Of a stretch of DNA of 38,416 nt, positions 21,740 through 23,535 are shown one piece after another. Position numbers and translations under genes: made by a program. A model generated the notes under the pieces. The model saw only the letters and a program-made list of their open reading frames with translations. It searched no databases and was not told the DNA's origin. Position 1 is the stretch's first letter, and every line of letters starts with the position of its first letter. Origin of the DNA: a virus (Duplodnaviria > Heunggongvirae > Uroviricota > Caudoviricetes); the IMG/VR virus record IMGVR_UViG_3300012359_000001, positions 1-38,416 of that record; one strand, 5' to 3'.

Positions 21740-21822
21740 CCAATTCGTAGAAAAGTAGCAACTGGTTTGGATGTATATCTGAGCAAAATCGGGTATACAT
21801 CGAAAAAGAAAGGATAATAATC

Positions 21823-22119
21823 ATGGAAAGAATTGATTTAGCCGCATTAGCGAATGCTTGTCCTATCCTCTGTTCTCCCCAGGAGAACAGTGATGAGCGA
21901 TTAGAACAAGGATATCCCTATAGTCTTGAGAATGGATATTATGCTTTATTCATGCCCTCTGAATATCAAAACAATTGGGGCAGGATGAATATTGCCCACA
22001 CGAGTGATACAGATCGTGCTGTAATATACCGTGCTGATTGCAAAGATGCAGAGACAGGCGTTGCACAGTGGCACTGTGATACATCTGGATCAACTTCTTA
22101 TGCCCCTTATAGCGCATAG
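21823..22119 (+). CDS. Hypothetical protein
   Basis: AAAGGA RBS. Confidence 0.6.
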   Translation: MERIDLAALANACPILCSPQENSDERLEQGYPYSLENGYYALFMPSEYQNNWGRMNIAHTSDTDRAVIYRADCKDAETGVAQWHCDTSGSTSYAPYSA

Positions 22120-22211
22120 AGGCGAAACATGTTTGCAGCAGAGTTTGAAAGTTTCTATGCTGACTTGCTAGCAAGCGAGGATATCAATTCGTAAGGAAGG
22201 AAATAACCATC

Positions 22212-22409
22212 ATGGCACTTACAAGAAACAGTCAGGACGAGCCAATTTGCGACCTCTGCGGAAATAACGCGCTGTCAATGGATTTATGGTCAGATGAGCA
22301 GAAAGATCACGATGCCCCTACCGATCCATTGATAGATCACTATGTATGCAGGCATGAAGAGGAGTGCCAGGAAGCCGCAAAGTCCTGGGGGTGGCACTTC
22401 GTTCGTTAG
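22212..22409 (+). CDS. Small Cys/His hypothetical protein
   Basis: CDLC...YVCRH..C; AAGGA RBS. Confidence 0.65.
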   Translation: MALTRNSQDEPICDLCGNNALSMDLWSDEQKDHDAPTDPLIDHYVCRHEEECQEAAKSWGWHFVR

Positions 22410-22448
22410 TTGACAACAACAGGGAAGGTATGCTATTCTTTCCCTGTT
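22410..22448 (+). promoter_or_regulatory. Promoter of the CRISPR-like RNA, with inverted repeat around -10
   Basis: TTGACA-N18-TATTCT with TGn; AACAGGGAA (22418-22426)/TTCCCTGTT (22440-22448). Confidence 0.7.
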
Positions 22449-22520
22449 CCCGTTTACGGGATTGAAACATTTCTTTCTTTACACAATACATGCACTCTAT
22501 CCCGCTTGCGGGTTTACTAC
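22432..22520 (+). CRISPR. Solitary CRISPR-repeat-like unit / degenerate mini-array (no cas genes)
   Basis: TCCCG-TTTA-CGGG followed by ATTGAAAC (canonical 8-nt handle); 32 nt later a second CCCG-CTTG-CGGG hairpin plus 8 nt. Confidence 0.65.
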
Positions 22521-22569
22521 GACAACAAAAACACTTCTCCTTTTTTACAGGAGAAGTGTTTTTGTTGTC
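22521..22569. terminator. 21-bp perfect hairpin, probable bidirectional terminator
   Basis: GACAACAAAAACACTTCTCCT-N7-AGGAGAAGTGTTTTTGTTGTC. Confidence 0.8.
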
Positions 22570-22624
22570 AGGCGAAGAAATATACGTATTGCAAAACTGC
22601 AACACCTCTACCTTAAGTATATCA

Positions 22625-23191
22625 TCACAACCAGAAAATACTCATTCCTGGCATCGTTGCTCCTCCGCTAATGGTAATGCCATTCACGCATCCAACTCCC
22701 TGAGCCGGACCGACATCATACCCAAGTGGCGCGGATGTCGTAAGCATGCCCACAATTGTCCCAGAGGTTGTCGTAGCATTATCGTATGCAGCAGGCGAAC
22801 CTGCTCCAACCGTCGTTACCAGGAATCCATAGAATATTCCTGCACTAGCTTTAATGATCGTTGGCCCGGTTGCACCAGCGGCTATCGGTGTTTTGTTTAC
22901 TCCGGCAAACGCAACAGTTGACGAGCCGCCTACAGAGTCAACGATCACATGCCCGATCACATTTGTCCCGGCAGGAATGGCTGTAGTCACTTTTACTGAC
23001 GCGTTACCGGATGCGTCTATAGCAAGCTTTTGCGTTGTTGTACTGGGATCATTGATGGTAACACTACTGCTAGCCTCCGTGGTCGCGTTAATGCTCCCAT
23101 CGCTATTGATAGCCAACAAGTGCGTTATATCGGTTGGATCGGCAATAGTTACAATTCCTACGGTCCGGATTGGCTGTACTGGTGTTGTCAT
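22625..23191 (-). CDS. Thr/Ala/Gly-rich beta-type protein, probably virion-associated
   Basis: Two copies of TIxDP..T..LAIxxxG; AAGGAG RBS; last gene of the lysis operon. Confidence 0.75.
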   Translation of the reverse strand: MTTPVQPIRTVGIVTIADPTDITHLLAINSDGSINATTEASSSVTINDPSTTTQKLAIDASGNASVKVTTAIPAGTNVIGHVIVDSVGGSSTVAFAGVNKTPIAAGATGPTIIKASAGIFYGFLVTTVGAGSPAAYDNATTTSGTIVGMLTTSAPLGYDVGPAQGVGCVNGITISGGATMPGMSIFWL

Positions 23192-23535
23192 GTATCGCTC
23201 CTTTTGTTCTCATCTAGAATAGTTTGTCTCGCGTCAGCATTTCCTTTCGTATCAGGTGCACCATTTTTTGAAGTGAGAACCTCATTCCGTAAAAAATGCT
23301 GTAGAGGAATGAACGTCTCAGCCTGCAATGCAAATGTCGCGGTCACAATGATGGGCAGATCGGATACAGGGTTACCCGTTAATTGTCCCTGGATGAGTAG
23401 GTCAAGCACAACTACCAGGATAATCGTACCTGCGGCTAGCAACATATTGATCTGTTTGGGCCATGTATCACGTTGCAAGAGATACGAGACAACGAAGGCG
23501 ATAGGAGGAAGGATATCAGTAACTTGTATGTGCAT
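23188..23535 (-). CDS. Putative holin
   Basis: Small, 2-3 hydrophobic helices, charged C-terminus, in the lysis cluster. Confidence 0.6.
   Translation of the reverse strand: MHIQVTDILPPIAFVVSYLLQRDTWPKQINMLLAAGTIILVVVLDLLIQGQLTGNPVSDLPIIVTATFALQAETFIPLQHFLRNEVLTSKNGAPDTKGNADARQTILDENKRSDT

Follow-up and report, generated by a model that had tools for sequence, protein, structure and literature searches.

What could a phage do with a piece of a CRISPR repeat placed behind a predicted promoter of its own? The question arises from a short non-coding unit in a window of 38,416 nucleotides, the whole stretch of DNA analysed here, which forms the first 38 kb of a complete phage record of 102,416 nt from soil, with 123-nt terminal repeats and 47% G+C. 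The DNA of this phage is present in two soil metagenome runs, which may be its source; no RNA data set is among the runs that contain it. Few of its proteins have family matches. A first reading, made from the sequence only, had described the unit as mimicking a CRISPR repeat although the phage has no cas genes, and had proposed that its RNA could sequester or redirect the CRISPR proteins of the host. The absence of cas genes holds for the two families that were searched, Cas6 and Csc2: neither was found in this phage, nor in the two distant relatives, G528 and G537, to which we return below.

The unit sits between two convergent open reading frames (Table 1). The one upstream has no Pfam or PHROG match and no homologue in related phages. 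It is small and acidic, with four cysteines, and it is placed like the anti-CRISPR genes that stand beside Racrs, a likeness of position alone. On the other side, the minus-strand block 3' of the unit has weak Pfam matches, and a related phage has a block in synteny with it. Close relatives of the phage were sought via two flanking proteins, and none was found. Two other accounts of the locus were rejected: a TTG-started ORF (22462-22671) that runs across the terminator extends into the convergent gene and lacks conservation in G528, and the unit is not an end of the phage's TnpB element, whose ends are unrelated to it.

Table 1. Positions of the unit, of its neighbours and of the related features discussed in the text
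Feature	Position	Strand	Remark
65-codon ORF upstream of the unit	22212-22409	+	
-35 hexamer TTGACA	22410..22415	+	part of the sole sigma-70-like site in 21800-23300, 10/12 matches with TG
Imperfect inverted repeat around -10	arms 22418-22431 / 22435-22448	.	14-nt arms, 86% complementary
-10 hexamer TATTCT	22434..22439	+	TG at 22431-22432 upstream; promoter scan, prediction only
Predicted transcription start	~22446	+	3 nt 5' of hairpin 1; placed from the usual spacing
Repeat-like hairpin 1, CCCG-TTTA-CGGG	22449..22460	+	stem same as in type I-D-linked host-class repeats; candidate Cas6 stem-loop
8-nt tail ATTGAAAC	22461..22468	+	candidate crRNA 5' handle; cut at 22460/22461 expected from established Cas6 and type I-D behaviour
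32-nt spacer-like segment	22469..22500	+	
Repeat-like hairpin 2, CCCG-CTTG-CGGG	22501..22512	+	candidate second Cas6 site, which would set the 3' end
Degenerate tail TTTACTAC	22513..22520	+	resembles a decayed terminal repeat
Perfect 21-bp hairpin	22521..22569 (arms 22521-22541 / 22549-22569)	.	T runs in both arms
Convergent ORF downstream of the unit	22625-23191	-	
G528 three-hairpin unit	L096:8520-8725		
G528 canonical and compact arrays	L105:1805-2080 and L105:2740-3010		
Copies of the dispersed host element	L004:3660-3760, L068:1440-1520, loci L191-L220		
Solitary repeats in cas loci	L237 (12968), L238 (10986), L240 (5104 and 16478)	L237 -; L238 +; L240 + and -, respectively	

The anatomy given by the sequence-only reading, that is, a promoter with an inverted repeat, two hairpins, 32 nt between them and a closing 21-bp hairpin, is confirmed base for base. 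The two promoter hexamers are separated by 18 nt, TG included, and the predicted TTGACA-N18-TATTCT promoter ends 9 nt 5' of hairpin 1. Transcription is predicted to start so close to this hairpin that the RNA would begin with the very part of the repeat that Cas6 binds. The inverted repeat that surrounds the -10 hexamer may be an operator, or may form a structure in read-through RNA. The hairpin with the TTTA loop is followed by exactly 8 nt, and the same geometry is found in 13 aligned repeats; the ungapped alignment of the repeat ends left their loops unaligned, and pattern counts were used, not a covariance model. Most of the 37-nt repeats found in the probable host class end in the same 8 nt as the tail ATTGAAAC, while TTTACTAC, the tail of the second hairpin, agrees with a real tail, TTTGAAAC, in 5 of 8 positions.

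The 21-bp hairpin probably terminates transcription in both directions, separating the unit from the convergent minus-strand genes; a simple terminator scan missed it because its T run sits inside the long stem. The fold of 22446-22575 has an energy of -49.5 kcal/mol (z = -9.35). In the minimum-energy fold, hairpin 1 pairs with hairpin 2, and the two local hairpins do not form. Such pairing is to be expected of identical stems, and the local hairpins would be favoured if the RNA folds as it is transcribed. No Rfam family matches the window.

Is the likeness to a repeat an accident? The pattern CCCG-N3-5-GGG-W-TTGAAA has one site in the window and none in 100 dinucleotide shuffles, and the hairpin-plus-handle pattern has this single site in the entire phage genome. 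The likeness of hairpin 1 and ATTGAAAC to a repeat is not chance. One could argue that ordinary hairpins happen to look like a repeat, since the exact 20-mer formed by hairpin 1 and its handle does turn up by chance, in metagenomes as well as in a protein-coding gene that is conserved among unrelated bacteria. Its matches among the GTDB representatives are four single ones, two of them in that gene and two intergenic, none in an array; in the JGI metagenomes it is found in the same coding gene only, and in IMG/VR it is not found. Against such an account stand the shuffles, the second hairpin, identical to a repeat, that lies 32 nt downstream, and the recurrence of the design in related phages together with its absence from the reversed control. 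We consider a chance resemblance very unlikely, to the point of being negligible.

Which host could then read this repeat? The best matches of the phage TnpB protein among 401 Chloroflexota genomes, at 64-69% identity, all belong to one class, taken to be Ktedonobacteria, which points indirectly, and at class level, to a host in this class. It is represented by 169 species genomes, some of 10.7-13.7 Mb, and Csc2 is found in 59 of them, so that type I-D is common in the class. All tallies over the 169 genomes include two unpublished ones, G060 and G141; when both are removed, the Csc2 count becomes 57/167. Neither is the source of any sequence given in this text.

Many arrays of this class have 37-nt repeats whose last 20 nt consist of a CCC(G)/(C)GGG stem-loop followed by ATTGAAAC or TTTGAAAC. 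Their natural spacers measure 32-41 nt, with a mean of ~36.5, and the 32-nt segment of the phage is at the low end of this range. The array of genome G027 adjoins genes for Cas10d/Csc3, Csc2, type I-D Cas3', Cas6 and Cas1d, and the 3' half of its repeat differs by one base from hairpin 1 plus handle. Hairpin 2 and the 3 nt that follow it, CCCGCTTGCGGGTTT, are identical over 15 nt to a 37-nt repeat of G043, and in loci L237 and L240 arrays lie within 8 kb of csc2. The proposal that the stem and tail correspond to the 3' end of a type I-D-like repeat is thus borne out by repeats that stand beside type I-D cas genes. The comparison with host repeats that had been suggested along with it succeeds for this 3' half, but the exact repeat with the TTTA loop is found as an array neither in the GTDB representatives, nor in the JGI metagenomes, nor in IMG/VR.

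The likeness is confined to the 3' side of the repeat. The 5' halves of host-class repeats vary by species, and in the phage unit the promoter stands there instead. The 17 nt that precede each of the two hairpins are unrelated to one another and to host repeats, and the resemblance to a repeat covers just its 3' 20 nt. The unit is therefore no normal array, and cannot be a product of adaptation. A CRISPR array search of the phage itself found none.

The same repeat family also forms ordinary arrays in two IMG/VR contigs, L100 (IMGVR_UViG_3300031520_000006) and L095; one array has at least 10 repeats, the second has 3. Genome G001 encodes, at L087:7905-9668, a TnpB/Cas12f2-like protein of 587 residues, below the family cut-off, some 3 kb (~3 kb) from an array with a ATTGAAAC-type repeat. 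Solitary full-length type I-D repeats also occur inside type I-D cas loci, just 5' of a ribosome-binding site and start codon (Table 1), a position that suggests Cas6 processing of cas-locus mRNAs.

Besides arrays, the genomes of the host class contain a dispersed element of ~105 nt that consists of a TTGACC-N17-TATACT promoter-like part, a leader of ~40 nt and the 3' half of a type I-D-like repeat. It is present in 18 of the 169 genomes, and its promoter part reaches at least 23 copies in each of two of them, with none in the reversed control. Unrelated sequence comes after the repeat half, and the neighbouring genes are unrelated as well. This element is possibly a mobile element, or a family of Cas6-processed RNAs. 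One copy, in G001, contains the exact 20-mer of the phage, with some likeness just upstream, and another, in G019, agrees with the phage at 29 of 35 positions, from the repeat half into the first part of the 32-nt segment.

It is natural to ask, then, if the unit has any CRISPR-directed role at all, or if it is the remnant of a host-derived array or dispersed element that acts, at most, as a small RNA or as a terminator region between convergent genes. A multi-copy host element that ends in the same repeat half is a plausible source, the G001 and G019 copies come close to the phage sequence, and the handle of the second repeat has decayed. However, when the phage is compared with a profile built from the host element, only the repeat half matches (E = 0.35), and the unit is therefore no copy of this element. 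A remnant also fits poorly with a promoter, two stems and a terminator that are all intact, and the preservation of the same design in phages with only 30-52% protein identity argues for selection and against a remnant. The host element is itself enriched in type I-D genomes: Csc2 is found in 13 of the 18 genomes that carry it, against 46 of the 151 others (Fisher p = 0.001, relatedness ignored). We regard a remnant as unlikely.

The dispersed element opens another possibility, namely that the phage mimics crRNA-like RNAs of the host, and not the repeats of its arrays. One can go further and conjecture that the dispersed units, of which there are dozens per genome, and the solitary repeats give rise to Cas6-processed, handle-tagged RNAs for gene control, and that the compact arrays of phages mimic, reprogram or jam this network, beyond classical immunity; we rate this conjecture as a long shot.

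Conservation in related phages, to which the sequence-only reading had attached importance, is indeed observed. Five large, distant relatives were examined, and units of the same design occur in two of them, G528 and G537; the search of the three others found no such unit. The shared design comprises a TTGACA promoter and repeats cut to hairpin plus handle, which are separated by segments of 26-37 nt; the last hairpin is degenerate, and a terminator closes the unit.

Phage G528, of 109,417 nt, was found by a pattern scan of IMG/VR. Its structural and lysis genes are syntenic with those of our phage, at 30-40% protein identity, and there is no DNA similarity. The promoter of its unit, TTGACA-N17-TATGCT, has a 10-bp inverted repeat around -10; behind it come three hairpin-plus-handle repeats, 37 and 35 nt apart, the last of which is decayed, and then a terminator. 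The arms of the promoter inverted repeats (22418-22448 in our phage, L096:8526-8556 in G528) differ in sequence, complementarity being kept, and in both cases they surround TATGCTAT. The junction GGGATTGAAACATTTC, common to this phage (G000) and G528, has only unrelated, mostly coding matches in IMG/VR. G528 also carries a canonical array of 4 x 37-nt repeats and a compact array of five repeats of ~25 nt, directly behind a TTGACA promoter, with segments of 29-34 nt, a decayed last repeat and a terminator (Table 1). An assignment of the G528 array to type V-F was rejected: its other strand reads as the same type I-D-like family.

A search with the portal protein yields 56 related records, 48 of which were searched for units; a looser pattern has 3 sites in 2 of these 48 records, and none in the reversed control. 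G537, whose portal protein has 52% identity, has a unit made of a TTGACA promoter, one repeat ending in ATTGAAAT, 26 nt, a decayed hairpin that resembles hairpin 2 of our phage, and a terminator. Across the phages, the repeats are conserved and the segments between them are unrelated, as they are in arrays.

If the 32-nt segment is a guide, what does it recognize? The phage itself contains no second copy, and the best off-site match there has 10 mismatches, in agreement with the earlier observation that the window holds no protospacer. The proposal to look among host cas promoters and competing phages yields no match: there is none in IMG/VR (searched with two exact 22-mers), in the 48 related phage records, in the genomes of five related phages or in the GenBank phages, and in 25 host-class type I-D loci (252 kb) the seed matches of the segment are no better than those of shuffled segments. 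Over the 169 host-class genomes, the best match is 26/32, which is near chance. It is found in G117 (L069:1496-1527), in the coding orientation within a host gene of 192 codons, and is perfect over its first 11 nt. This match, probably a chance one, was set aside: between ~0.1 and 0.9 matches of this quality are expected over the 169 genomes, and its flank is unlike GTN, the PAM of type I-D systems. There is no cross-targeting among the segments and genomes of G000, G528 and G537, and the comparison of 427 sampled host-class spacers with six phage genomes gives only chance matches of 14-19 nt.

How could such a unit work? In type I-D and type III systems, Cas6 cuts at the 3' base of the stem, and the 8-nt handle stays on the downstream RNA. 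We tentatively hold that the unit may well be a compact one-spacer crRNA-like gene, whose RNA is cut by the host Cas6, loaded into the type I-D proteins of the host, and acts as a guide. Its promoter would start an RNA a few bases 5' of hairpin 1, made of the part of the type I-D repeat that Cas6 needs (a 4-bp G/C stem-loop and the ATTGAAAC handle), the 32-nt segment, the decayed hairpin and the terminator. The type I-D Cas6 of the host would cut after each hairpin, releasing an RNA of ~52 nt (22461-22512) with a correct 5' handle, 32 nt and a hairpin. This RNA would displace host crRNAs in the type I-D effector, which would weaken immunity against the phage. The loaded complex might also be aimed at a sequence of the phage's choosing, be it in a competing phage or in a promoter of host defence, which the collections searched do not contain.

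The same RNA could, however, be a pure decoy of the Racr type, which binds Cas6 and Cas7-type subunits, keeps them occupied in non-functional complexes, and in which the 32 nt are filler. Neither a protospacer nor a seed match of the segment turned up in the collections searched, the repeats are trimmed to their protein-binding part, the promoter is directly upstream, as in viral solitary repeat units (PMC10651486), and the G537 version has just one good repeat and 26 nt: the missing target, the truncated repeats and this one-repeat version favour a decoy. Yet a decoy has no need of a second hairpin at spacer distance, and G000 has the layout repeat-segment-repeat. Nor does it need several different spacer-sized segments, and G528 has versions with 2 and 4 segments, at a spacing of 29-37 nt. 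The segments are, moreover, fully different between phages, yet keep lengths near those of natural spacers. The layout, the near-natural lengths and the multi-segment versions of G528 favour a guide over a Cas6 sponge, and we hold a pure decoy to be doubtful, though by no means far-fetched. That the unit is a CRISPR-repeat mimic is well supported; its function we infer, and with it transcription, Cas6 cutting, loading and an effect on immunity. The unit probably supplies a fake or hijacking guide RNA to the CRISPR proteins of the host.

It remains to place the unit among known systems. In its proposed way of working it is akin to phage repeat mimics already described, namely Racr solitary repeats, viral mini-arrays and Cracr arrays. 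Compared with the type I-D repeat of G027, it has the same G/C stem-loop and ATTGAAAC, up to the single base already mentioned, and a segment whose length is within the natural range; it differs in lacking the 17-nt 5' half, replaced by the promoter, in having one segment only, and in its decayed terminal repeat. The virus mini-arrays of Medvedeva et al. 2019 reportedly have full-length repeats that match those of the host, and spacers that hit related viruses. The unit resembles them in having a spacer between repeats, in a virus without cas genes that would rely on the Cas proteins of its host. In contrast to them, its repeats are cut to ~20 nt and no related phage is matched; with neither full repeats nor a viral protospacer in the collections searched, it is therefore not a classical mini-array.

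In Racrs, or viral solitary repeat units, a repeat mimic behind a promoter competes with host crRNAs (Camara-Wilpert et al. 2023, PMC10651486); those tested concern types I-C, I-E, I-F and V-A only (PMC10651486). Our unit is similar in that a repeat mimic is found, in a phage without Cas6 or Csc2, directly behind its own predicted promoter (within 250 bp), in that it keeps the Cas-binding stem-loop and handle, and in its predicted competition with host crRNAs. It differs by its two repeat-like hairpins around a spacer-sized segment, where a Racr has a lone repeat, and by its subtype, I-D, and host group, Chloroflexota.

A Cracr consists of a repeat-like part, a spacer-like part, an optional second repeat-like part and a terminator, and may be found in arrays of 2-3 (Liu et al., bioRxiv 10.1101/2024.10.29.618823). 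Cracr spacers tend to be shorter than canonical ones, partial matches to the target suffice, and the RNAs act both as guides and as decoys (10.1101/2024.10.29.618823). By definition they match the promoter of a host cas or toxin gene over at least 9 PAM-proximal nt and show a likeness to the host CreA/CreR, and Cracrs are reported for types V-A, I-F, I-E, I-C and I-B in three other phyla, with no mention of I-D (10.1101/2024.10.29.618823). The unit has the same layout, and related phages carry multiplexed compact arrays. In the 25 type I-D loci of the host class, its segment has no promoter seed match better than those of shuffled segments; that Cracr RNAs need only partial promoter matches would explain the missing protospacer. 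As for the likeness to a crRNA-like RNA of the host, a G001 copy of the dispersed element shares the 20-mer, and the G019 copy matches in 29/35 nt; these host units are candidate regulatory RNAs.

The unit is new in its subtype, I-D, in its host group, and in having so compact a repeat. No earlier candidate for a phage repeat mimic of type I-D, or in phages of Chloroflexota, was found here. Earlier cases of RNA-based CRISPR mimicry by phages come from Pseudomonadota, Bacillota and Actinomycetota: types I-C, I-E, I-F and V-A are demonstrated, and I-B is a proposal. With about 160 nt (~160 nt) of phage DNA, the unit is a concrete object for study. If it works, its stripped design, with a repeat of ~20 nt per guide right behind the promoter, reveals how far a type I-D repeat can be cut down and still be processed and loaded, and this would benefit type I-D tools that use compact guide arrays. 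Phage CRISPR mimicry would then extend to type I-D, and to the phages of mycelial soil Chloroflexota.
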